From assembly GCA_903909555.1 (NCBI GenBank), contig CAIVWG010000051.1, positions 720 to 64,719 of the forward strand: a DNA stretch of 64,000 bases, in the 5' to 3' direction. The translations under genes and the position numbers were made by a program. Positions 25,410 through 36,501 of the stretch are shown one piece after another (position 1 is the stretch's first letter; every line of letters starts with the position of its first letter). The notes under the pieces were generated by a model. That model searched no databases. It saw only the letters and a list, made by a program, of their open reading frames with translations, and was not told the DNA's origin. This DNA is from an uncultured bacterium (GTDB taxonomy: Bacteria > Actinomycetota > Actinomycetes > S36-B12).

Positions 25410-25801
25410 GAGGTCGTCCCGAACAGTGCCTCGACGGTGTGCTTGAGCATGAAGTAGGTGCCCGGGACCATGACGAGGACCCACACGGCGACGATGCCCC
25501 ACAGCATCTGACGCTGGTAGCGCGGTCCGCGCGACCAGAAGTCGACCGCGATGACCCTCAGGCCGTTGAGTGCGTGGTAGAGCACGGCACCCACGAGCCC
25601 GACCTCGAGCAGGTTCACCAGGGGGGTCTTGTAGGTCGCGATGACGAGGTCGTAGGCCTCGGGCGAGACCCGGACCAGGGCGGTGTCGAGCACGTGCACG
25701 TAGAGGAAGAAGAACACCGCGATGCCGGTGATGCGCTGGGCGACCCAGGACCACATGCCCTCCCCCCCGCGGTAGAGGGTGCCCACAGGCGTGGTCGCCA
25801 C
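25406..25801 (-). CDS. sdhC: succinate dehydrogenase cytochrome b subunit
   Basis: GTG 25801 is preceded by AGGAGG (25811-25806) with a 4-nt spacer. GTLYRGGEGMWSWVAQRITGIAVFFFLYVHVLDTALV is typical of actinobacterial SdhC. ATGA overlap with sdhD. Confidence 0.85.
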   Translation of the reverse strand: MATTPVGTLYRGGEGMWSWVAQRITGIAVFFFLYVHVLDTALVRVSPEAYDLVIATYKTPLVNLLEVGLVGAVLYHALNGLRVIAVDFWSRGPRYQRQMLWGIVAVWVLVMVPGTYFMLKHTVEALFGTTS

Positions 25802-25981
25802 GGTGCCTCCTGTCGCGGCGCTGCTTCGGCAGCGGGTGGTGTCCTTGTCCGTCCGCCATCGTAGTGCGGAATGAGGCCACGGGCAGGACGGGGTGAGCCA
25901 GGTCACAGCCCCGTCCCGGAGCCGGCGCCCTAGGCTGCGGGGTGCGGCGCACGCCGCCCGTCCGCTTCCGGGAGGCTCACG

Positions 25982-27556
25982 ATGACGACCGAGTCGGGCC
26001 TGCCCTTCGCGTCCGTCTACGACCCCGCGGCCCTGGACGGCTGGCAGCCGGCCGAGGCCCTCGGGGAGCCGGGCAACTTCCCGTTCACCCGCGGCGTCTA
26101 CCCCACGATGTACACCGGGCGGCCGTGGACCATGCGCCAGTACGCCGGGTTCGGCAACGCGGAGGAGTCCAACGCTCGCTACCGCCAGCTGCTCGGCGCG
26201 GGGACGACCGGGCTGTCGGTCGCGTTCGACCTGCCCACGCAGATGGGCTACGACTCCGACCATCCGCTGGCCCACGGGGAGGTCGGCAAGGTCGGCGTGG
26301 CCATCGACACGATCGACGACATGCGCATCCTGTTCGACGGGATACCGCTGGACAGGGTCTCGACGTCGATGACCATCAATGCGCCGGCTGCGATATTGCT
26401 CCTCCTCTACCAGCTGGTCGCCGAGGAGCAGGGGGTGCCTGGGAGTGCGCTCAACGGCACCATCCAGAACGACGTCCTCAAGGAGTACATCGCCCGGGGG
26501 ACCTACATCTACCCGCCCGCGCAGTCGCTGCGACTCGTCACGGACATCTTCACGTACTGCCGTGATGAGCTGCCCCGGTGGAACACCATCTCCATCTCGG
26601 GCTACCACATGGCAGAGGCGGGTGCGACCCCCGTCCAGGAGGTGGCCTTCACCCTCGCCAATGCGGTGGAGTACGTCCGGGCCGCGGTCGCCTCAGGGCA
26701 GCACGTCGACGACTTCGCCCCGCGTCTCGCCTTCTTCTTCGTGGCCCGCACGACGTTGCTCGAGGAGATCGCGAAGTTCCGCGCAGCCCGCCGGATCTGG
26801 GCGCGCATCATGCGCGACGAGTTCGGGGCCGAGGACCCCAAGTCCCAGATGCTGCGCTTCCACACCCAGACCGCCGGCGTCCAGCTCACCGCCCAGCAGC
26901 CCGAGGTCAACCTCGTGCGCGTCGCCATCCAGGCGCTCGGCGCCGTCCTCGGAGGGACCCAGTCGCTGCACACGAACTCCTACGACGAGGCCATCGCGCT
27001 GCCCACGGAGAAGGCGGCCCGCCTCGCGCTGCGGACACAGCAGGTCCTCGCCTTCGAGTCCGACGTGACCAAGACGGTCGACCCCTTCGCTGGGTCGTAC
27101 GCCGTCGAGTCCCTCACCGACGAGATCGAGGAGGCGGTCGACGCTCTCATGGCGCAGGTGCAGTCCCGCGGCGGGGCTGTCGCGGCGATCGAGCAGGGCT
27201 TCCAGAAGTCCGAGATCGAGAAGTCGGCGTACCAGTTCGCCCAGGAGATCGACGCGGGCGAGCGGATCGTCGTCGGGGTGAACCGCTTCGCCCTCGACGA
27301 GGAGGAGCCCTACGAGCCGCTGCGCGTCGACCCGACCATCGAGCAGCAGCAGCGCGCGCGCTTGGAGCGGATCCGGGCCGAGCGCGACCAGGCGGCGGTC
27401 GATGACGCGCTGTCCCGCATCCGGGCCGCGGCCGGGGGCGGCGACAACATCCTCTATCCCATGCGGGACGCCCTGCGCGCCCGCGCGACGGTGGGCGAGG
27501 TCTCGGATGCCCTGCGCGATGTCTGGGGCGTCTACCAGCCCACCGATGTCTTCTGA
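25982..27556 (+). CDS. methylmalonyl-CoA mutase family, large catalytic (N-terminal barrel) subunit
   Basis: [32 protein letters not shown]...[21 protein letters not shown], 524 aa. It lacks a C-terminal B12 domain. GGGAGG lies 6 nt upstream of the ATG. Confidence 0.92.
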
Positions 27557-27558
27557 CG

Positions 27559-28620
27559 ATGAGCGTCCCGGGACCGACTGACCCGCGCGCCGTGGTGCGC
27601 GCGGTCCAGTGGAGCGACGACACCCTGGTCCTCCTCGACCAGACGCTGCTCCCCGCGCGCGAGGAGCACGTCGCGTGCACCGATGTCGACTCGGTCGTGG
27701 ACTCGGTCCAGCGACTGGTGGTCCGTGGTGCACCGGCCCTGGGGGCCGTCGGCGCCTACGGCGTCGCCGTGGCGATGCTCCAAGCCGAGCGCGAGGACTG
27801 GGGCGATGACCGCCTGCGCAGGGAGATCCTCCGCATTCGCGATGCGCGGCCCACCGCGATCAACCTCGCCTGGGGAGTCGATCGCGTCACCCCCCTGGTT
27901 CCCGCGGGCGTGACTGCCGTGCTGACGGAGGCCCACGCGATTGTGGGCGAGGACCAGGCGGCCAACCGCGAGCTCTCGCGGCGGGGTGCCGACTGGATCC
28001 TCGACCGGGTGGAGCGGCGCCCCGTGCGGGTGCTGACCCACTGCAACACCGGCGATCTCGCCACGACAGGCTGGGGTACCGCGCTGGGGATCATCCGCGA
28101 ACTCCACGACCGCGGCCAGGTCGAGATGGTCTACGCCGACGAGACGCGTCCTCTGCTCCAGGGAGCGCGCCTCACCGCGTGGGAGTGCGCGCGCCAGGGC
28201 ATCCCCTGCCGCGTTCAGGCCGACGGCGCGGCGGCATCGACGATCCTGCGGGGACTCGTCGACGTCGCCATCATCGGCGCCGATCGCATCGCTCGCAACG
28301 GCGATACGGCCAACAAGATCGGCTCCGTCGGCATCGCGCTCGCCTGTCATGCCGCGGGCATCCCCTTCGTCGTCGCCGCGCCGTCGTCCACGGTGGACAT
28401 GGCAACGCCGGACGGCTCGCACATCGAGATCGAGTTGCGCGATGGCGCGGAGGTGACGACCTACGCCGGTGCCCGCGTGGCACCCGAGGGCGCCGACGGC
28501 TTCAATCCCGCCTTCGACGTGACGCCGGCGCGCTACATCAGCGCCGTCATCAGCGAGTGCGCCGTCGTCGAGCCCGATGGGGTGGCGCCCGTCGGCGCGC
28601 TCGTGGGGGAGCGGTCATGA
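27559..28620 (+). CDS. mtnA: S-methyl-5-thioribose-1-phosphate isomerase
   Basis: eIF-2B-related fold: LLDQTLLP...VRGAPALGAVGAYG...GADRIARNGDTANKIG. Starts 2 nt after the mutase stop. Confidence 0.9.
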   Translation: MSVPGPTDPRAVVRAVQWSDDTLVLLDQTLLPAREEHVACTDVDSVVDSVQRLVVRGAPALGAVGAYGVAVAMLQAEREDWGDDRLRREILRIRDARPTAINLAWGVDRVTPLVPAGVTAVLTEAHAIVGEDQAANRELSRRGADWILDRVERRPVRVLTHCNTGDLATTGWGTALGIIRELHDRGQVEMVYADETRPLLQGARLTAWECARQGIPCRVQADGAAASTILRGLVDVAIIGADRIARNGDTANKIGSVGIALACHAAGIPFVVAAPSSTVDMATPDGSHIEIELRDGAEVTTYAGARVAPEGADGFNPAFDVTPARYISAVISECAVVEPDGVAPVGALVGERS

Positions 28621-30578
28621 CGACGCCCCTGGACGAGTTGGTCGCGCGGTCGAATCGCATCGGCGATGACCCCTCCCTGGTCGTGTACGGAGGGGGGAAC
28701 ACCTCGGCGAAGGGGACGATCACGGATCACCTGGGCCGGCAGCAGCGCGTCATGTGGGTGAAGGGGTCCGGCGCCGACATGCGCGGCTCCGTGGACGCCG
28801 ACTACCCGGGATTGCGGCTGGAGGAGCTCGAGGCCCTCCGGTCCTTCGACGCCATGTCCGACGAGGAGATGACCGATCTCGTCGCTCGCGCGCTGCTCGA
28901 CCCCGGATCCCGGCGGCCGTCGATCGAGACCCTCCTGCACGCCTTCCTGCCGTTCACCCACATCGATCACGTGCACGCCGACGCCATCTGCGCACTCACC
29001 AACCATGCCGAGGGTCGGCGTGTGACGGCGGAGGCACTCGGGGACCGCTTCGCGTACGTCGACTGGATTCGCCCGGGTTTCGAGCTCAGCCGTATCGTCG
29101 GCGACCTCGCCGACTACGACGGCGTCGTCCTTGCCCATCACGGTCTCGTGACGTGGGGCAGTACGACGGACGAGTGCTGGGAAGCGACGCGGAGGACCGT
29201 CGATGCGGCGGCGGCGTACGTCTCGGCCCACCGGGTCGCGGCGGGGCCGCCTCCCGTGCATGCTGACCTGTCCGATGACGAGGTCGAGCAGCTCCTGCTT
29301 CGCCTGCGCGGTCGCCTGGGGCGACGGATCCTGCGCGTCGACGAACGATTGCGACCGGTGGCCGATGACCCCCGCGTCGAGGGCATCGTCGCCGGCGGCG
29401 TGTCCAGCGCCGATCACATGCTGCGCATCAAGCCTCGATCGCTGGTCGTGAGGTCGGCCGACGAGGCACCTGCTGCGGTGGACGCCTATGGCGCCGATTA
29501 CGAGGCCTACGTCGCCCGCCACGCGGACCTGATGCCGGAGGGCTTCCGTGCGCACGATGCTCTTCCACGGGTCATGCTGATTCCTGGTCTGGGCGCGATC
29601 ACGGTGGGCGTCTCCAACTCCGACGCGCGCGTGCTTGCCGACATCGCGCTGCACACTCATGCCGTCGCGGCGGACGTGGCCGCTGCGTTCGGGACCGCCG
29701 AGCCTCTGAGCGAGAAGGACACCTTCGAGTTCGACTACTGGCCCATGGAGCTCTACAAGCTCACGCTCAAGCCGCCGCCCCCGCCCTTCGCGGGGTTCGT
29801 GGCCGTCGTCACCGGCGCGGCATCGGGCATCGGTCGCGGTATCGCGCTCGAGCTCGGCCGGCTCGGCGCCTCGCTCGTGCTGGCCGATCTCGACGGCGAC
29901 GGCGTCGAGGCCTCGGCGAGCGATGTGGCGCAGGTGGGCCCGGCCCCCGAGGTCGTGATCGGCGACCAGTCGGATGAGGACGTGGTGCGCGCCACGGTGC
30001 GGTCGGCGGTCCGCGCCTACGGCGGCCTCGACGGCATCGTCGTGAACGCGGGCATCGGGGTGACCGGCACTCTCGAGGAGCTCACCCTGGAGCAGTGGGA
30101 GCGCGCCCAGCGCGTCAACCTCACGTCGGGCTTCCTGCTCACGCGCGAGGCCATGGGAGTGATGCGCCGTCAGGAGATGGGCGGGTCGCTGGTGTATGTC
30201 GCCAGCAAGAACGCCTTCGGCCCCGGCGCGGGGTTCGGCGCGTACTCGGTGTCCAAGGCGGGGATGGTGCAGCTCATGCGCATCGCCGCCCTGGAGGGCG
30301 GCCCCATCGGCGTGCGCGCCAATGCGGTCAACCCCGACGCGGTGTTCGACAACTCCCGGCTGTGGGACGACGGCCTGCGCGAGGAGCGGGCAGCCGCCCA
30401 CGGCATCCGGCCGGATGAACTCGAGGACTTCTACGCCGCTCGCAACATCCTCAAGCGGCGTGTGACAACGGCCGACGTGGCGGCGTCCGTGGCCTTCCTG
30501 CTCTCCGACGCCTCGTCACGGACGACCGGCGCGGTGATCCCCGTCGACGGCGGCGTGGCCGGGGCCTTCCCCCGCTGA
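28617..30578 (+). CDS. bifunctional class II aldolase/adducin-domain - short-chain dehydrogenase fusion (COG3347-like)
   Basis: ATG 28617 overlaps the mtnA stop (ATGA). N-terminal half: GGGNTSAKG, VKGSGADM, His cluster HAFLPFTHIDHVHADA. C-terminal half is an SDR (VVTGAASGIGRGIA, YSVSKAG). 653 aa. The track ORF start 28179 lies inside mtnA. Confidence 0.88.
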   Translation: MTTPLDELVARSNRIGDDPSLVVYGGGNTSAKGTITDHLGRQQRVMWVKGSGADMRGSVDADYPGLRLEELEALRSFDAMSDEEMTDLVARALLDPGSRRPSIETLLHAFLPFTHIDHVHADAICALTNHAEGRRVTAEALGDRFAYVDWIRPGFELSRIVGDLADYDGVVLAHHGLVTWGSTTDECWEATRRTVDAAAAYVSAHRVAAGPPPVHADLSDDEVEQLLLRLRGRLGRRILRVDERLRPVADDPRVEGIVAGGVSSADHMLRIKPRSLVVRSADEAPAAVDAYGADYEAYVARHADLMPEGFRAHDALPRVMLIPGLGAITVGVSNSDARVLADIALHTHAVAADVAAAFGTAEPLSEKDTFEFDYWPMELYKLTLKPPPPPFAGFVAVVTGAASGIGRGIALELGRLGASLVLADLDGDGVEASASDVAQVGPAPEVVIGDQSDEDVVRATVRSAVRAYGGLDGIVVNAGIGVTGTLEELTLEQWERAQRVNLTSGFLLTREAMGVMRRQEMGGSLVYVASKNAFGPGAGFGAYSVSKAGMVQLMRIAALEGGPIGVRANAVNPDAVFDNSRLWDDGLREERAAAHGIRPDELEDFYAARNILKRRVTTADVAASVAFLLSDASSRTTGAVIPVDGGVAGAFPR

Positions 30579-30703
30579 GCCTGCGCCGAGCCACGCCTCC
30601 CTGCTCTCCGACGCCTCGTCGCGCACGACGGGCGCGGTCATCCCGGTCGACGGCGGCGTGGCCGGGGCCTTCCCCCGCTGACCCTGCGCTGAGCCGCGCC
30701 TTC
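30498..30703 (+). repeat. 103-bp tandem duplication: last 26 codons + stop + 22 nt of the aldolase-SDR gene (copy A 30498-30600, copy B 30601-30703)
   Basis: Aligned by eye. The 81-nt coding parts differ at 5 positions (tca/tcg, cgg/cgc, acc/acg, gtg/gtc, ccc/ccg), all third-position and synonymous. The 22-nt non-coding tails differ at 4 positions. Unit borders share gcct(t/c)cct microhomology. Confidence 0.9.
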
Positions 30704-30744
30704 CTCCGCCCTGCGCTGAGCCGCGCCTTCCTCCGCCCTGCGCC
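30682..30744 (+). repeat. 27-bp direct repeat ccctgcgctgagccgcgccttcctccg x2 plus a partial third copy
   Basis: 30682-30708 and 30709-30735 are identical, and 30736-30744 repeats the first 8-9 nt. The unit overlaps the tail of the 103-bp repeat. Confidence 0.9.
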
Positions 30745-30822
30745 GGGAATCGCCGTCGTCAGGGTCACGGAGCCGCGCAAGGCTGCCGAAGGCGGTGGTC
30801 CGCGCTCCTTCGGGCTGCCGTG

Positions 30823-31116
30823 CTACTTCGGGCGGAGCTTGGTCTCGAGATCGATTTCGAGGCGGGACGCGGTGATGCCCAGGCTGCGGCTCGTCGCATA
30901 CAGACCGATGCCCCCGAGGATGCCGCCCACGCCGATGGCGAGGACGATGTCGAGCACCTCGAGGATCGGCACGTCGAAGCCCAGCCAGGCGATCACGCAC
31001 GCAACGACGATGAGCCATCCGACAGCGAGGCTGATGAAGCCGCACGCAAGGACCTGGCGCGCAGTCTGCCGGGCTCGTCGGACTTGCGCCTCGTACTCGT
31101 CGATCGGGAGGTCCAT
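30823..31116 (-). CDS. hypothetical small membrane protein (two predicted TM helices)
   Basis: 97-aa ORF with G/C-rich third positions. CGFISLAVGWLIVVACVIAWLGF and VLDIVLAIGVGGILGGIGLYA are hydrophobic helices. No family recognised. Confidence 0.55.
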   Translation of the reverse strand: MDLPIDEYEAQVRRARQTARQVLACGFISLAVGWLIVVACVIAWLGFDVPILEVLDIVLAIGVGGILGGIGLYATSRSLGITASRLEIDLETKLRPK

Positions 31117-31261
31117 GCGCGAAGCCTAGGGGGGCGGGGCCCGCGAGACACGAGCTCGCGGGGCGTCGGCCCCTCCCGAGGGGGTGCCGCGGCCCCCGGG
31201 GACGTTTCCCGACGCGACGTGACGATAGGCGCGGGCGTTGGGATGAGTTGGCGTCGGGAAA

Positions 31262-31293
31262 CCGGGTTAGGGCGACACCGGGTTAGGGCGACA
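31262..31293. repeat. perfect 16-bp tandem duplication ccgggttagggcgaca x2 spanning the mtnC stop codon
   Basis: 31262-31277 equals 31278-31293. The second unit holds the mtnC stop (TAA, complement of 31283-31285) and the first carries a second copy of it. Confidence 0.9.
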
Positions 31294-32002
31294 GGCGGAT
31301 ATCGGCCATCACCGACACCTCGGGGTACGCCGAGTCCTCGATCGCATGCGGCTCACCGGGGCGACGTACCCGCACCACCTGCAAGCCGGCGTCGCGAGCC
31401 GCGTCGAGTTCCGCGACGACATCCGAGCAGAAGAGCAGCGTTGCCGGGTCTGCGCCGATGGCGGCGGCGATGGCACGGTACGACGCCTCCTCGCGTTTGG
31501 GTCCGGCGTTCACGGTGTCGTAGTAGCCGCTGATCCATCCCGTGAGATCCCCCACGGGGGAATGGGAGTACCAGTTGCGCTGGGCGAGCACCGACCCCGA
31601 CGAGTACACCGAGATCGGCACCCCTGCGTCGTGCCAGGCTCCGAGGGTCTCCAGTGCGTCGGGGTAGAAGTCCGACACGAGCTCCCCGCTGTCGAATCCT
31701 TCCTGCCAGATCAGCCCCTGCAGGGTCTTCAGCGGCGCGATCTTGCGATCCTCAGCCACCCAAGCGGTGAGGGCATCCACGACCTGCTCCCGCGTGGGGT
31801 CGGCCACGCCGATCTCGCGGCCGATGTCAGCGACGATCTCGCGCACCTGCGGCTCGTCGGCATGCTCGGCGAGCCACGCGTCGAAGCGCCGGGTCGCGTA
31901 AGGGAAGAGCACGTCGTAGACGTATGTCGACCTGCTCGTAGTGCCCTCGATGTCGACCACGACATGCGCGATGCCGGTGAACGACGGCTCCGCTAGGGTC
32001 AC
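31283..32002 (-). CDS. mtnC: enolase-phosphatase E1 (2,3-diketo-5-methylthiopentyl-1-phosphate enolase-phosphatase)
   Basis: HAD motif I VVVDIEGTT, KIAPLKTLQGLIW, 239 aa from GTG 32002. The in-frame GTG 32032 (track start) would overlap mtnB head-to-head. Confidence 0.82.
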   Translation of the reverse strand: MTLAEPSFTGIAHVVVDIEGTTSRSTYVYDVLFPYATRRFDAWLAEHADEPQVREIVADIGREIGVADPTREQVVDALTAWVAEDRKIAPLKTLQGLIWQEGFDSGELVSDFYPDALETLGAWHDAGVPISVYSSGSVLAQRNWYSHSPVGDLTGWISGYYDTVNAGPKREEASYRAIAAAIGADPATLLFCSDVVAELDAARDAGLQVVRVRRPGEPHAIEDSAYPEVSVMADIRLSP

Positions 32003-32017
32003 GGCGAAGGAGGCTAC

Positions 32018-32686
32018 ATGTCCCCGGCTCACGTCCCCGCGGAAGACCTCGCGCGCACGTCGCGGCGCCTGTTCGCCCTGGGCTGGATGCGTGGCACCTC
32101 GGGCAACGTGTCGATGCGCGACGGCGACGGGCTGCTCGTGACCGCCTCAGGCGTGGACAAGGCCGCGGTCGACGCGACCCATGCGGTGCGGACCGACTGG
32201 GAGGGCCGGGCCGTTCCCGGGCAGGAGTTCCCGCCGAGCGCCGAGGCTCGCATCCACGGCGCCGTCCTCGCGGCCACGGGCGCGGGCGCGTCCGTGCACG
32301 TGCACGCCCTGTCGGCCGTGGTCGCCGCGGCGCGCTGGCCCGGCGGCGTTCCGCTCGCCGACGTCGAGCAACTCAAGGGGATCGGCCGCGGCGCCCACGG
32401 TGACCTCGTCACGGTGCCCATCGTGTCCAACTCCCAGGACATGGCCGAGCTCGCCGACCGCGTGCTCCGAGCCCTCGACGACGGGGTACCCGGGGTCATC
32501 GTGGCCCAGCACGGCCTCTACGCCTGGGGCAGCACCCTCGACGATGCCGTAGCGCGGACCGAGAGCCTCGACTGGCTCTTCGAGCACGCCCTGCGGATCG
32601 ACGCCCTGCGCGGGGAAGGACTGCCGGCGCGCGGCGGCGACGCCCTGGGCCACAATGGGGCCAGCCGCCCACAGGAGGAGTCATGA
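32018..32686 (+). CDS. mtnB: methylthioribulose-1-phosphate dehydratase (class II aldolase fold)
   Basis: AAGGAGG (32007-32013) lies 4 nt before the ATG. GWMRGTSGNVSMRD...EARIHGAVL...SVHVHALS, 222 aa. The dehydratase-versus-aldolase assignment rests on context with mtnC/mtnD. Confidence 0.8.
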   Translation: MSPAHVPAEDLARTSRRLFALGWMRGTSGNVSMRDGDGLLVTASGVDKAAVDATHAVRTDWEGRAVPGQEFPPSAEARIHGAVLAATGAGASVHVHALSAVVAAARWPGGVPLADVEQLKGIGRGAHGDLVTVPIVSNSQDMAELADRVLRALDDGVPGVIVAQHGLYAWGSTLDDAVARTESLDWLFEHALRIDALRGEGLPARGGDALGHNGASRPQEES

Positions 32687-33270
32687 CCCTGCTCACCGTC
32701 TGGGACGACGATCGCCCCGACACCCCGGTCCTGCAGACCGCCGACCGCGAGGTCATCGCGGGCACCCTCGCCCCCCTCGGCGTCGTGTACGAGCACGTCG
32801 CCGTCGGCGACCGGCTTCCCGACGATGCCACGCAGGACGAGATCCTGGCAGCGCACCGCGCCTTGGTCGACCGGCTCATCGCCGAGCACGGCTACCGCCT
32901 CGTCGACGTCGCGCAGCTGCATCCGGTCGACTCCGAGGAGTGGCGTGCCACGGCGGCGGCCGCACGCACGAAGTTCCTCAACGAGCACACCCACGACGAG
33001 GAGGAGATCCGCTACTTCGTCGCGGGCTCCGGGGTCTTCTATCTCCACATGAACGCGCGGGTCCACGCGATGCTGTGCACCGAGGGCGACCTGCTCAGCG
33101 TCCCGGCACTCACCACGCACTGGTTCGACATGGGGGAGGCCCCGGACTTCACGGCCGTCCGCTTCTTCCATGACGAGGACGGCTGGGTGGGGACCTTCAC
33201 CGGCAGCGACATCTCCACGCGATTCCCGACCTTCGACGAACTGTCCCGGGTCGCGCTGACCACCGCATGA
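32683..33270 (+). CDS. mtnD: acireductone dioxygenase (ARD, cupin)
   Basis: FLNEHTHDEEEIRYFVAGSGVFYLH cupin metal motif, 195 aa. ATGA overlap with mtnB. Confidence 0.88.
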   Translation: MTLLTVWDDDRPDTPVLQTADREVIAGTLAPLGVVYEHVAVGDRLPDDATQDEILAAHRALVDRLIAEHGYRLVDVAQLHPVDSEEWRATAAAARTKFLNEHTHDEEEIRYFVAGSGVFYLHMNARVHAMLCTEGDLLSVPALTTHWFDMGEAPDFTAVRFFHDEDGWVGTFTGSDISTRFPTFDELSRVALTTA

Positions 33271-33283
33271 TCTCGGCCCGCTC

Positions 33284-34042
33284 ATGACCCCGGGCTCGCT
33301 CGGCATCATCGCCGGCAGCGGCTTCTACGGGCTCGATGCCCTCGGCGACTCCGTCACCCGTGTCGTCGAGACGGCGTACGGTCCCGTCCTCGTCACGTCC
33401 GGGCTGCTGCATGGCCGCCCAGCGCATTTCGTGACCCGCCACGGCGTCGATCACTCGGTGCCGCCGCACATGGTGAACTACCGGGCGATCATCCAGGCGC
33501 TCGCCGACCTCGGCGTCACGGAGATCCTCGCCGTCAACGTCGTCGGAGGCATCGGTCACGAGGCAGGTGACCTCGTCGTCATCGACGACTTCATCGACTT
33601 CACTCACCAGCGCACGGTCACGTTCTTCGACGGCAGCACGCCCGAGGGGGTCGTCCATGCCGACGTGAGCGAGCCGTACGACGAGCGCCTGCGGCAGGCG
33701 TGGCTCGCCGCCGCCGCGGACCTCGGCGTCCCCGTCACGCCGCACGGCGTGTACGGCGCCTTCGAGGGGCCGCGTTTCGAGACGAAGGCGGAGATTCGCA
33801 TGGCCCAGGCCGCGGGTGTCACCGTCGTGGGCATGACCGGCGTCCCCGAGGTCGTGCTCGCCGTCGAGCGCGGGATCCCGTACGCGAGCCTGTGCCTGGT
33901 CGCCAACCCTGCCGCCGGGCTCGGCAGCGAGCCGATCACCGTCGACGACGTCATGGCCGTGATCGCGCAGGGGGCCACGACCGTGACGGGAATCCTGGAT
34001 CGCGCTGCCGCGCGGCTGGCGGAAGACGCGGAAGCACCGTGA
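33284..34042 (+). CDS. mtnP: S-methyl-5'-thioadenosine (or -thioinosine) phosphorylase
   Basis: LGIIAGSGFYGL N-terminus, RHG..H..PPHMVNYRA, GMTGVPEV, 252 aa. Confidence 0.88.
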   Translation: MTPGSLGIIAGSGFYGLDALGDSVTRVVETAYGPVLVTSGLLHGRPAHFVTRHGVDHSVPPHMVNYRAIIQALADLGVTEILAVNVVGGIGHEAGDLVVIDDFIDFTHQRTVTFFDGSTPEGVVHADVSEPYDERLRQAWLAAAADLGVPVTPHGVYGAFEGPRFETKAEIRMAQAAGVTVVGMTGVPEVVLAVERGIPYASLCLVANPAAGLGSEPITVDDVMAVIAQGATTVTGILDRAAARLAEDAEAP

Positions 34043-35337
34043 CGGTCGACCTCCTCATCCGCGAGGCGCGCTTCGCCGTCATGGCGGACGAGGATGGCAC
34101 TGTCCACGAGGGCGTCTCGATCGCGATCGACGATGGGCGCATCGTTGCGGTCGGTCCCGACCTGGCGTCGGATGCCCGCACCGTCATCGACGGCCGCGGC
34201 ACCCTGGTGATGCCGGGCCTGGTCAACCTGCACACCCACCTGCCCATGGCGCTGCTGCGCGGGGTCGCGGAGGACGTGGACCTGCAGGGATTCCTCGAGC
34301 GGGTGTGGGCGGAGGAGGCCCGACTCATGGACGCGCGCGGCGTGTACGTGGGTGCGCGTCTCGGCGCGCTGGAGGCGCTGCTCTCGGGGACCACGACGGC
34401 ACTCGACATGTACTTCCACCCGGCGGACGCTCATCGCGCCGCCGTCGAGGTCGGCCTGCGCCATGTCACCGGGCCCGTCTTCTTCTCCTTCGCCGGCCCG
34501 GACGGCCTCGCCTGGGAGGAGCGGATGGCGCTGGCGCGCGACTGGCCCGCCACGCTGGCAGCGCTCGGCGGCCCGCACGTGCCCGCGGCCCTCATGCCGC
34601 ATGCGGCCTTCACCGTCGGCATCGATCACCTCCGGGAGATCGCCGAGCTCGCACGCGCCCAGGGGGCGCTCGTGCACACGCATGCGTCGGAGAACGATCG
34701 CGAGAACGCCGACACCGTGGCATCCACGGGCCTCCGGCCGGTCGCGGCGCTCGATGCGTCCGGGATCCTCGCCCTGGGCCCGGTCCTGGGCCACGGCGTC
34801 CGCCTCGATGATGGCGAACGACGCCTTGTCGCGGCGACGGGGACGTCGGTCGCCCACTGCCCGGGCTCGAACCTCAAGCTCGCCAGCGGCGCCGCGGACT
34901 TCGTGGGCTATCGCGGCGACGGCATCCGGGTCGGCCTCGGCACGGACGGGTGCTCGTCGAGCAACGACCTCGACATGTTCGCCGTGATGCGCCTGGCCGC
35001 GAACCTGTCGCGACTCGTCCGCGACGACCCGGCCTCGGTGCAGTCCCGGGATGTCGTCGCTGCCGCGACGGTGGAGGGTGCCCGCGCCCTGGGGCTGGAC
35101 GACCGGATCGGCACCGTCGAGCCAGGCAAGGAGGCCGACCTCGTCGTGGTGGACCTGAGGTCCCCTCACCTGGTCCCCGTCCGCGACCCGTACACCGCGC
35201 TCGTGTACGCCGCGGGCCGCGGTGACGTGCGCGATGTCGTGGTCGCCGGTGAGGCGGTCGTTCGCGATCGGCGCTCGGTCCGCGTCGATGCCGCGACCGT
35301 CATGGACGAGGCCCTCGCGCTCGTGGCGGTGCCGTGA
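34039..35337 (+). CDS. mtaD: amidohydrolase, 5-methylthioadenosine/S-adenosylhomocysteine deaminase-like
   Basis: GTG 34039 overlaps the mtnP stop (GTGA). PGLVNLHTHLPMALLRG, VHTHASEN, HCPGSNLKLASG, GLGTDG metal-ligand motifs, 432 aa. Confidence 0.82.
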   Translation: MTVDLLIREARFAVMADEDGTVHEGVSIAIDDGRIVAVGPDLASDARTVIDGRGTLVMPGLVNLHTHLPMALLRGVAEDVDLQGFLERVWAEEARLMDARGVYVGARLGALEALLSGTTTALDMYFHPADAHRAAVEVGLRHVTGPVFFSFAGPDGLAWEERMALARDWPATLAALGGPHVPAALMPHAAFTVGIDHLREIAELARAQGALVHTHASENDRENADTVASTGLRPVAALDASGILALGPVLGHGVRLDDGERRLVAATGTSVAHCPGSNLKLASGAADFVGYRGDGIRVGLGTDGCSSSNDLDMFAVMRLAANLSRLVRDDPASVQSRDVVAAATVEGARALGLDDRIGTVEPGKEADLVVVDLRSPHLVPVRDPYTALVYAAGRGDVRDVVVAGEAVVRDRRSVRVDAATVMDEALALVAVP

Positions 35338-35816
35338 CCGGCCAGGCGGACGATCGCGTCCGCAGCCTGGACGCGATGTCGGCGCCGGAGGTCATCGCAA
35401 CCTTGGGCCTGGAATACCTCGACGGCGAGGGCGTGTGGTTCCGCCTGCTGTGGCGCACCGACCACGGCAACGCCATCTACGGACTGCTCACCCCGGAGGA
35501 CTTCAGCGCCCTGCACGTGCTGAGGGAGGACGAGGCGTGGGTGCATGTCGCGGGAGCGCCGGCGCGGATGCTCCTGCTCCACCCGGGCGGGGCACACGAG
35601 TCACCGGTCCTCGGCACCGACGTGGGCGCAGGACACGTGCCAGTGCTGCGGGTCCCCGCCGGGACGTGGCAGGGAGCGCGGACCTGCGGTGCGTGGACCC
35701 TGGTCGCCTGCACCCTCGCGCCACCCTTCAGCGGATTCACCCTGGCCGGCGCCGACACCGACCTGTCCGAGTGGGACGCCGCGGCGGATGCGATCGCGGA
35801 GCTGGTCCGTGGCTGA
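35334..35816 (+). CDS. DUF985 (cupin_5) family protein
   Basis: GTGA overlap with the deaminase stop. VIATLGLEYLDGEGVWFRLLWRT resembles the DUF985 N-terminal motif as I recall it, 160 aa. Confidence 0.65.
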   Translation: MTGQADDRVRSLDAMSAPEVIATLGLEYLDGEGVWFRLLWRTDHGNAIYGLLTPEDFSALHVLREDEAWVHVAGAPARMLLLHPGGAHESPVLGTDVGAGHVPVLRVPAGTWQGARTCGAWTLVACTLAPPFSGFTLAGADTDLSEWDAAADAIAELVRG

Positions 35817-36501
35817 GCCGCGCGTCGTTCTCGTCACCGGGGCATCCGGCGGCCTCGGCAGGGCGCTCGTCGGCGCATTCGGCGGCGACGTCGTGCTGCG
35901 CCAGTCCCGCTCGGCTGAGCGGGGCGACCTCGTGGGCGACCTCGCCGACGAAGGCGACGTTCGTCGCATGATCGATGACGCGATGTCGCGTCACGGGCGG
36001 ATCGACGTGCTCGTCAACAACGCCGCCGACCAGGGCATCGGAGAAGAGCGTGCCGACCTCGAGCGCTGGCGTTCCATGCTCGACGCGACCCTGCTCACGG
36101 CGGTGCGCGTCACCGACGCGGTGGTGCCGCACATGCCGCCGGGCTCCGCGATCGTCAACGTCTCGTCGGCGGCGGCGACGCACGCGTTCCCCGTCAACGC
36201 GCCCTATGCCGCCGCCAAGTCGGCGCTGGAGGCCTTCACCCGTTCGCTGGCCGTGGACCTCGGGCCGCGCGGGATCCGCGCCAACGCCGTCGCGCCCGGC
36301 CTCATCGCGCGCGACGGCCTCGAGGCGGACTGGCCGGAGGGCCATCGCGCGTGGTCGCAGGGGACTCCTCGGGGAAGCATCGTCAGCGCGCGTGAGGTGG
36401 CGGCTGCCGTGCGCTTCCTGGCCGGGCCGGAAGCATCGGGCATCGCCGGCGTCGTCCTGCCCGTCGACGCAGGATGGTCGGCGAGCGCCCGGCTCACGTG
36501 A
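35809..36501 (+). CDS. SDR-family oxidoreductase
   Basis: GTG 35809 overlaps the cupin gene by 8 nt. VLVTGASGGLGRAL, NNAA, YAAAKSA (YxxxK), 230 aa. Confidence 0.85.
   Translation: MAEPRVVLVTGASGGLGRALVGAFGGDVVLRQSRSAERGDLVGDLADEGDVRRMIDDAMSRHGRIDVLVNNAADQGIGEERADLERWRSMLDATLLTAVRVTDAVVPHMPPGSAIVNVSSAAATHAFPVNAPYAAAKSALEAFTRSLAVDLGPRGIRANAVAPGLIARDGLEADWPEGHRAWSQGTPRGSIVSAREVAAAVRFLAGPEASGIAGVVLPVDAGWSASARLT

Follow-up and report, generated by a model that had tools for sequence, protein, structure and literature searches.

The region described here is a 64,000-nucleotide stretch (the window; G+C content about 70%) of contig CAIVWG010000051.1 from an uncultured bacterium of the actinomycete lineage S36-B12 (assembly GCA_903909555.1, positions 720 to 64,719 of the forward strand). 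Its subject is a pair of overlapping forward-strand genes. The first, mtnA (27559..28620), encodes an S-methyl-5-thioribose-1-phosphate isomerase of 353 aa (TIGR00512, 391 bits against a cutoff of 279). The second (28617..30578) encodes a 653-aa protein of the RhaEW family in which a class II aldolase-like half is fused to a short-chain dehydrogenase/reductase (SDR) half; within the family it belongs to an MtnA-linked group referred to below as clade A. At the junction of the two genes (28605..28620, forward strand) a Shine-Dalgarno-like GGGGGAG (28605-28611) lies 5 nt before the ATG of the fusion gene, and this ATG overlaps the TGA stop codon of mtnA in the tetranucleotide ATGA (28617-28620). 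The fusion gene is translationally coupled to mtnA. We propose its product as a candidate aldolase for the salvage of S-adenosylmethionine by-products. The overlap had already been pointed out in an initial annotation of the DNA, together with the protein motifs GGGNTSAKG (residues 25-33), HAFLPFTHIDHVHADA (108-123), TGAASGIG (399-406) and YSVSK (543-547), and all of these were found as described. The same annotation saw no rhamnose isomerase or kinase gene in the window; here, too, tblastn agreed, and queries with RhaA, RhaI, RhaB, RhaS, LutB and DeoR returned zero matches over the whole 64 kb.

The fusion protein is built from three parts. Residues 9-201 (28641..29219, forward strand) form the class II aldolase-like domain (Pfam PF00596 Aldolase_II, 61 bits against a cutoff of 22) and residues 400-647 (29814..30557, forward strand) the short-chain dehydrogenase domain (adh_short_C2, 164 bits), while the middle region (residues ~202-391; 29220..29789, forward strand) has no Pfam match. 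In the AlphaFold2 model of the fusion (pLDDT 87.7, pTM 0.86) the middle region is a confidently modelled helix/strand domain, and it holds the invariant D266-H267 and Y374-W375-x-x-E378. Foldseek matches were confined to SDRs and the uncharacterised Thermoplasma N-domain 3m4r, which superimposes on the aldolase half with a target-normalised TM-score of 0.89 and an rmsd of 1.6. FucA-type PDB chains matched the aldolase domain at E = 0.007-0.035 (2opi, 0.007), 3m4r being the sole good match. When the fusion was aligned by hhalign with the methylthioribulose-1-phosphate dehydratase MtnB of the same window (probability 87%), the elements GGGN28TS, K49-G-S51-G52, P-S102-I-E104, H118-x-H120 and H175-G aligned with their class II aldolase counterparts. 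N28, S51, G52 and S102 are accordingly named here as predicted phosphate-binding residues, E104 as the predicted catalytic residue and H118, H120 and H175 as predicted metal ligands. The SDR half carries G400-x3-G404-x-G406, S530, Y543 and K547, as well as D424 at the end of the second beta-strand, which we take to be the acidic residue of an NAD-type rather than an NADP-type SDR. Since the catalytic residues of both the aldolase and the SDR are invariant or nearly so across all three family groups described below, both halves are expected to be active.

With the RhaEW family the protein shares the two-domain architecture, but it does not lie in a rha locus. It scores below every curated NCBIfam cutoff: with TIGR02632 (RhaD_aldol-ADH) it reaches 543.5 where 567.75 is required, and none of the ten NF0061xx models for bifunctional aldolase/SDR proteins is passed either (top model NF006190, 580 against 1014). 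MtnB models were not among its 25 best NCBIfam families (best 25 of 219 matched). A search against one representative per 50%-identity cluster gave matches of 61, 54 and 51% identity and then of at most 46%; among the 120 best 90%-identity clusters listed, identity to the window protein is nowhere below 71%. In a neighbor-joining tree (74 sequences, 673 columns, 100 bootstraps), clade A, the actinobacterial MtnA-linked group with at least 54% identity to the window protein, is monophyletic in 100/100 bootstraps, and so is the rha-linked group. Between the two lies a paraphyletic grade of "orphan" homologues. Clade-A proteins (P0023, P0044, P0114 and others) carry public names such as "rhamnulose-1-phosphate aldolase/alcohol dehydrogenase", "SDR family oxidoreductase" and "hypothetical protein"; the first of these, with its reference to rhamnulose, probably over-annotates the clade.

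At 31 positions clade A has one residue in at least 95% of its sequences, whereas the RhaEW group has a different one in at least 85%. The flanks of the metal histidines are V119 and A121 in clade A against Thr and Pro in RhaEW; W150 and Y63 replace Tyr and Phe. The middle region is rich in clade-specific substitutions (S264, A265, M268, I271, S275, H348), with S264-A265-D-H-M268 in clade A against C-P-D-H-L in RhaEW and H348 against Ile. The SDR half differs at Q451 (Val in RhaEW), S504 (Gly), M550 (Glu) and A538 (Lys), the latter in the loop preceding the catalytic Tyr. As far as sequence can tell, this pattern fits a change of specificity with the chemistry kept.

The genomic surroundings of homologues were surveyed in 169 loci related to the window protein, among the matches listed. 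They were drawn from contigs with close homologues, from 80 loci of species-representative genomes (family-wide alignment) and from 80 metagenome loci (clade alignment), and flanks were typed by tblastn and clustering of open reading frames (ORFs). Identity of the fusion to the window protein reaches 54% or more in 96 loci, of which 82 have at least 1.1 kb of upstream DNA. MtnA is encoded directly upstream on the same strand in 76 of the 82, as against beside a single one of the 73 homologues of 45% identity or less (Fisher p ~1e-35, calculated over loci that are phylogenetically non-independent). The stop-to-start spacing falls between -4 and +1 nt in 82 of 86 MtnA-fusion pairs, with the 4-nt overlap in 62 of them, and the overlap is kept across 54-100% identity and 44-76% G+C. 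The adjacency of mtnA and the fusion gene is far beyond chance. An apparent MtnA-fusion triple fusion in one locus (L113) was rejected: its stop codon contains an N (TAN), and the near-identical L112 reads TAG-ATG.

The low-identity homologues are of two kinds. Fifty of the 73 loci make up the RhaEW group (Bacilli, Chloroflexi, Thermoleophilia and other Actinomycetes), in which at least one rha gene lies within 7 kb in 34/50 and rhamnose isomerase in 27/50, often accompanied by DeoR and LutABC. The other 23, the orphans, come from Chloroflexota/Dehalococcoidia, Nitrospirota, Rokubacteria, Thermoanaerobaculia, Acidobacteriota and Omnitrophica, and rha and mtn genes are absent nearby, save for an FGGY-kinase match (L024) and MtnA (L072). 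Typing of the clade-A loci L001-L016 for rha genes turned up no bona fide one; the FGGY-kinase matches in L001 and L011 are of xylulokinase type where tested, L001 scoring over the TIGR01312 cutoff. The initial annotation had proposed a survey of homologues for mtnA against rha genes, and the outcome it predicted is what emerged: an mtnA-linked clade distinct from the rha-linked RhaEW. These counts bear directly on the simplest alternative, namely an ordinary RhaEW for rhamnose catabolism (L-rhamnulose-1-phosphate aldolase plus L-lactaldehyde dehydrogenase) that has mtnA as a neighbor by chance. Such an enzyme would have just this two-domain architecture and all of its catalytic residues, the TIGR02632 score falls just short of the cutoff, and close relatives are publicly named rhamnulose-1-phosphate aldolase/alcohol dehydrogenase. 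Yet neither the window (rhaA, rhaI, rhaB, rhaS) nor L001-L016 supplies rha genes, clade A is split off in every bootstrap, and the mtnA overlap persists over the whole range of identity and base composition; we consider this explanation highly improbable.

Within the window the pair is followed by genes of canonical methionine salvage, with mtnC, mtnB, mtnD and an mtnP-type gene 0.7-3.5 kb downstream of the fusion. They comprise mtnC (enolase-phosphatase/acireductone synthase; 31283..32032, reverse strand; TIGR01691, 226 against a cutoff of 128), mtnB (methylthioribulose-1-phosphate dehydratase; 32018..32686, forward; TIGR03328, 152 bits against 137) and mtnD (acireductone dioxygenase; 32683..33270, forward; PF03079, 91 bits). 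The mtnP-type phosphorylase gene (33284..34042, forward) encodes a protein over the cutoff of the methylthioinosine phosphorylase model (NF006599, 235.6 against 223) and under that of the methylthioadenosine phosphorylase model (TIGR01694, 238.7 against 274.85); it is the predicted source of 5-methylthioribose-1-phosphate and 5-deoxyribose-1-phosphate. An amidohydrolase akin to deaminases of 5'-deoxyadenosine and of 5'-methylthioadenosine (MTA)/S-adenosylhomocysteine comes next (34039..35337, forward; PF01979, 207 bits; NF006549, NF005557 and NF012037 all below cutoff), and it probably deaminates the nucleoside ahead of phosphorolysis. Past it lie a DUF985 cupin, a separate SDR and a Bmp/PnrA-type ABC transporter. 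The gene set at 33284-36501 (mtnP-type gene, MtaD/DadD-like amidohydrolase, DUF985 cupin, SDR) suggests a deaminate-then-phosphorolyse entry. PDB matches of the Cupin_5 protein (35334-35816) are hypothetical proteins exclusively.

On the other side of the pair is a methylmalonyl-CoA mutase large-subunit-like gene (25982..27556, forward; PF01642, 742 bits; TIGR00641, 767 bits). Its 524-aa ORF contains no B12-binding domain and its stop lies 2 nt ahead of the mtnA ATG, and it is probably the first gene of the mtnA-fusion transcription unit. As a functional partner the mutase was rejected: it is a neighbor in just 11 of the 96 related loci, and a functional link to mtnA is doubtful because in L100 an opposite-strand GntR gene intervenes between the two.

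Several local features of the window deserve mention. A 103-nt tandem duplication (30492-30594 and 30595-30697, 91% identical) places a second copy of the fusion gene's end, ~28 codons plus stop, directly past the real stop, so that LLSDASSRTTGAVIPVDGGVAGAFPR is encoded twice. It is followed by two exact 27-nt direct repeats (30682-30735), and the spacer between the fusion gene and mtnC measures ~700 bp as against 4-90 bp in relatives. This structure may be the scar of a duplication, or it may have arisen in assembly. The called 5' ends of the divergent mtnC and mtnB overlap by 15 nt (32018-32032). Because the MtnC profile match begins at residue 22, the true mtnC start probably lies ~60 nt further in, which would leave a very short divergent control region with mtnB. 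An Rfam scan of 20000-42000 gave zero families at gathering score, so no riboswitch was found there, and simple scans for sigma-70 promoters and intrinsic terminators over 25800-32200 were empty, which is uninformative at 70% GC.

Across the 96 clade-A loci the MtnA-fusion pair is constant while its other neighbors change. MtnB/C/D as in the window occur in 11-12 of the 96 loci and a RuBisCO-like protein (RLP) in at least 40; further partners are a GntR regulator (27/96), a split transketolase (20/96), MtnP (16/96), an MtnK homologue identified by tblastn (16/96) and a sugar ABC binding protein (15/96). MtnK often shares its locus with a sugar ABC transporter and a GntR regulator. One locus (L008) combines several of these partners in the order MtnC, MtnB, MtnD / GntR / MtnA, fusion, ABC transporter, MtnK, its MtnK scoring 358 bits with TIGR01767 against a cutoff of 275. 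The RLP often follows the pair directly on the same strand. It is not encoded in the window; examples are L001 (12006-15084), L015 (4045-5115) and many of L096-L169. The RLP beside the pair is short (366 aa), has 3qfw as its best PDB match (226 bits) and stays under the MtnW cutoffs. A split transketolase goes with it in 20 loci. Layouts are mtnA-fusion-RLP, mtnA-fusion-TKn-TKc-RLP (with the transketolase split in two), or convergent.

The frequency of these two partners raises the alternative that the fusion uses the MtnA product in a new pathway together with RLP and split transketolase, and not in the chemistry of the dihydroxyacetone phosphate (DHAP) shunt. In such a scheme the aldolase-fold domain could be a dehydratase or an epimerase, or a sugar-phosphate intermediate could be the substrate of the SDR, with the window retaining only part of the system. 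The counts given above speak for it, and so does the fold, since the class II aldolase fold also houses the MtnB dehydratase, the AraD epimerase and decarboxylases, between which the residues do not discriminate. On the other hand, the pair occurs without RLP or transketolase in the window, in close relatives and in the Omnitrophica operons described next, for which reason the fusion is not dependent on them, and the characterised relatives are genuine aldolase/aldehyde dehydrogenases. Moreover, RLP and aldolase branches that share MtnA are already known in Rhodopseudomonas palustris and Rhodospirillum rubrum, so that co-location with RLP need not mean one pathway. We regard this alternative as rather unlikely.

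Outside clade A, three loci of Ca. Omnitrophica (L072, 2300-7598; L170, 3063-8788; L173, 2059-6641) encode a purine nucleoside phosphorylase (PNP), MtnA and the fusion in this order. An adenine phosphoribosyltransferase (Apt) gene lies next to or near the fusion gene in all three, within three differing surroundings. The L072 fusion is 38% identical to the window protein, and those of L170 and L173 match the L072 protein at 66-67% identity. The MtnA of L072, alone among the low-identity loci, is thus no chance event. These operons are a second, independent lineage with the MtnA-fusion arrangement, and they additionally encode a recycler of the freed adenine (Apt). In the remoter Omnitrophica homologues inspected the PNP-MtnA-fusion arrangement is not present. 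A further Omnitrophica fusion (L174, 4001-8905; 63% identical to that of L072) has no MtnA nearby and lies two genes upstream of a 713-aa spermine/spermidine-synthase-like gene, a class of enzyme that produces MTA.

Any cell using S-adenosylmethionine generates 5'-deoxyadenosine and MTA, both of them inhibitory. MtnA products are ketose-1-phosphates, the substrate class of DHAP-dependent class II aldolases. Taking gene context and conservation together, we hold with moderate confidence that the fusion is a diverged member of the RhaEW family that would act as the aldolase of a DHAP-shunt-type salvage of S-adenosylmethionine by-products; the best reading of the data is a putative non-orthologous, fused form of the DHAP-shunt aldolase. 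In the pathway we propose, the MtnP-type enzyme would phosphorolyse MTA and 5'-deoxyadenosine, possibly after deamination by the neighboring amidohydrolase, and MtnA would turn the resulting aldose-1-phosphates into 5-methylthioribulose-1-phosphate (MTRu-1-P) and 5-deoxyribulose-1-phosphate (dRu1P). The window MtnA is expected to supply the ketose-1-phosphate and to act on 5-deoxyribose-1-phosphate too. The sulfur compound would proceed to methionine via MtnB/C/D. Cleavage of the ketose-1-phosphate by the metal-dependent aldolase domain would release DHAP together with acetaldehyde, or with 2-methylthioacetaldehyde where MTRu-1-P is the substrate. The fused NAD-type SDR would at once oxidise this aldehyde to the corresponding acid, in the manner of RhaW and lactaldehyde. 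Such oxidation would pull an aldol cleavage whose equilibrium favors the sugar phosphate and would remove a reactive aldehyde. The published equilibrium constant of the aldol cleavage is ~1e-4, favoring dRu1P formation (PMC6079011). The stand-alone aldolases DrdA and Ald2 cleave dRu1P and MTRu-1-P.

Two parts of this proposal are put forward with less assurance than the role itself. The preferred substrate is probably dRu1P, which the methionine branch cannot use, with MTRu-1-P as a possible second substrate. The main job of the fusion would be the 5-deoxy compound because the pair is constant while the sulfur-recovering branch (MtnB/C/D or RLP with or without transketolase) varies. The second part is the oxidative direction of the SDR half. 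With the pathway otherwise as favored, this half might instead use NAD(P)H to reduce the aldehyde, so that ethanol or 2-(methylthio)ethanol would be formed and no acid. In R. rubrum and R. palustris the aldehyde of the DHAP shunt is indeed recovered in vivo as 2-(methylthio)ethanol by a reductase described as unidentified (PMC5893883, PMC13474568), and most SDRs, the PDB neighbors included, handle alcohol/carbonyl pairs. In contrast, the RhaEW of Chloroflexus aurantiacus was inactive with NADH and gave lactate with NAD+. D424 fits NAD better than NADP, and oxidation offers the thermodynamic pull that would justify fusing the two enzymes. We consider reduction unlikely.

The initial annotation had drawn an aldolase and an aldehyde oxidoreductase in one polypeptide fed by MtnA, in parallel with MtnB/C/D and with the MtnA product as a branch point. 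Gene context supports this picture at the level of genomics, and the branch point has a direct precedent in R. palustris. In most relatives, however, it is an RLP, alone or with a split transketolase, that takes the place of MtnB/C/D beside the pair, and dRu1P derived from 5'-deoxyadenosine would be a more economical substrate than MTRu-1-P, either being possible.

Several observations weigh against the proposed role. The function of clade A is argued from gene context and conservation, and the conserved residues would look alike whether the domain is an aldolase or one of the dehydratases, epimerases and decarboxylases that share its fold. Fusion and MtnB would be rivals for MTRu-1-P in the window, and RLP and split transketolase could form one pathway with the fusion where they accompany it. 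The survey loci are related by descent and were drawn from the matches listed. The stereochemistry of the substrates is a further difficulty: L-rhamnulose-1-phosphate is 3R,4S, while D-ribulose-1-phosphate derivatives are 3R,4R like fuculose-1-phosphate. For dRu1P the 3R,4R configuration is also given in the literature (PMC6079011). A switch of stereopreference at C4 is a predicted requirement, since the relatives cleave the 3R,4S compound and the predicted substrates are 3R,4R.

Finally, MtnA is not upstream in 6 of the 82 clade-A loci. A divergent nucleoside phosphorylase takes its place in L016; L104 (877-5502) and L105 show the order GntR, then fusion-xylose isomerase (TIGR02631, 544 bits), without MtnA; and in L135 (6108-8702) and L136 a small cupin with a weak D-lyxose-isomerase match lies upstream of the fusion, again with no MtnA. 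Clade-A members of this kind may rely on another isomerase or have another substrate. Such loci, along with the nucleoside-type Bmp ABC transporter and further catabolic genes at the locus, would agree with an enzyme that cleaves some other ketose-1-phosphate or deoxysugar phosphate and that has mtnA beside it through a broad regulon for nucleoside and sugar scavenging. The 4-nt stop/start overlap in 62 of 86 pairs, however, amounts to operonic coupling and not to loose co-regulation, and 5'-deoxynucleoside salvage is the common ground of the recurring partners MtnK, MtnP or PNP, and Apt. We give this explanation little credence, and the DHAP-shunt-type role remains the reading that we favor.

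In the literature searched, which did not include the DHAP-shunt distribution survey of North et al. 2020, no RhaEW-family fusion serving MtnA is described, in line with the suggestion of the initial annotation that such a variant had not been reported. RhaEW and the DHAP shunt are each known already; the new element is a fused RhaEW-type enzyme linked to MtnA. Many genomes have no identified aldolase for the deoxyribose moiety, the "unidentified aldolase" scenario of Beaudoin et al. (PMC6079011). If our reading is true, one polypeptide covers both the aldolase and the aldehyde steps in environmentally abundant Actinomycetota, a change of substrate class has taken place inside a fused enzyme family, and the widespread annotation "rhamnulose-1-phosphate aldolase/alcohol dehydrogenase" would be corrected. 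It would also provide a ready example of a fused dehydrogenase that pulls an aldolase thermodynamically. A bolder extension, which we consider doubtful, holds that the RhaEW family is not mainly a rhamnose family at all. Clade A and the orphan grade, which is without rha genes and in places forms PNP-MtnA-fusion-Apt operons, would then be the missing housekeeping enzyme for dRu1P of radical S-adenosylmethionine origin. In freshwater and marine Actinomycetota, moreover, clusters of the type mtnA-fusion-(transketolase)-RLP would encode a further, undescribed salvage pathway independent of oxygen, with RLP, split transketolase and fusion working together.

Four known systems invite comparison. 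The RhaEW enzymes of C. aurantiacus (Caur_2283) and Bacillus subtilis (YuxG) are the two family members that have been assayed, as bifunctional L-rhamnulose-1-phosphate aldolases/L-lactaldehyde dehydrogenases; without NAD+ there was no net cleavage, the product was the acid, and RhaEW is described as always encoded in rha loci (PMC3870299). The initial annotation had named the B. subtilis protein as the characterised member of the family, which is right as far as it goes, but the C. aurantiacus enzyme, likewise NAD+-oxidising, is characterised as well. The window protein shares with RhaEW the three-part architecture, 36-45% identity and all catalytic residues, and is predicted to work alike, cleaving its substrate to DHAP and an aldehyde before NAD+-dependent oxidation. 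It differs in its separate clade, its score under the TIGR02632 cutoff, its 31 fixed substitutions, its overlap with mtnA in place of rha linkage, and a predicted substrate of opposite C4 configuration.

The DHAP shunt, or 5-deoxyribose disposal, proceeds through MtnP or MtnN plus MtnK, MtnA (DrdI) and Ald2 (DrdA) (PMC6079011, PMC5893883, PMC10986504). Its gene clusters are recognised in the literature by MtnK, MtnA, an aldolase and a transporter occurring together (PMC6079011), an arrangement that some clade-A loci such as L008 show, and in R. palustris MTRu-1-P is the branch point between the RLP (RLP1) and Ald2 (PMC5893883). Here the likeness lies in a phosphorylase or kinase, MtnA and an adjoining class II aldolase gene, often with a sugar transporter and a repressor, and in a branch that shares MtnA with the methionine or sulfur salvage branch; in the window, the mtnA gene adjoins the aldolase gene and an MtnP-type gene is present. 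In contrast, Ald2/DrdA are stand-alone FucA-like proteins of ~210-220 aa, whereas the window aldolase domain is only remotely related to FucA and has a dehydrogenase fused to it. In the known shunt the aldehyde falls to an unlinked enzyme; a review of July 2026 lists two DHAP-shunt variants, each with a stand-alone Ald2, and calls the aldehyde-handling enzyme unknown (PMC13474568).

With MtnB the aldolase half has in common its fold, the metal and acid/base motifs, an upstream MtnA and the substrate pool. However, a gene of its own, 1.4 kb downstream, encodes the bona fide MtnB, and the fusion has an SDR domain for which the dehydratase route has no need. The fluorometabolite route of Streptomyces cattleya consists of a 5-fluoro-5-deoxyribose-1-phosphate (5-FDRP) isomerase, which is an MtnA homologue, a fuculose-type aldolase and a fluoroacetaldehyde dehydrogenase. 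This route, mentioned in PMC6079011 and PMC6302742, resembles the proposed one in running from isomerase to aldolase to oxidation of the aldehyde to an acid in an actinobacterium. It differs in that its steps are carried out by separate proteins on another substrate, and in that it belongs to secondary metabolism, as against the conserved, fused and putatively housekeeping enzyme described here.

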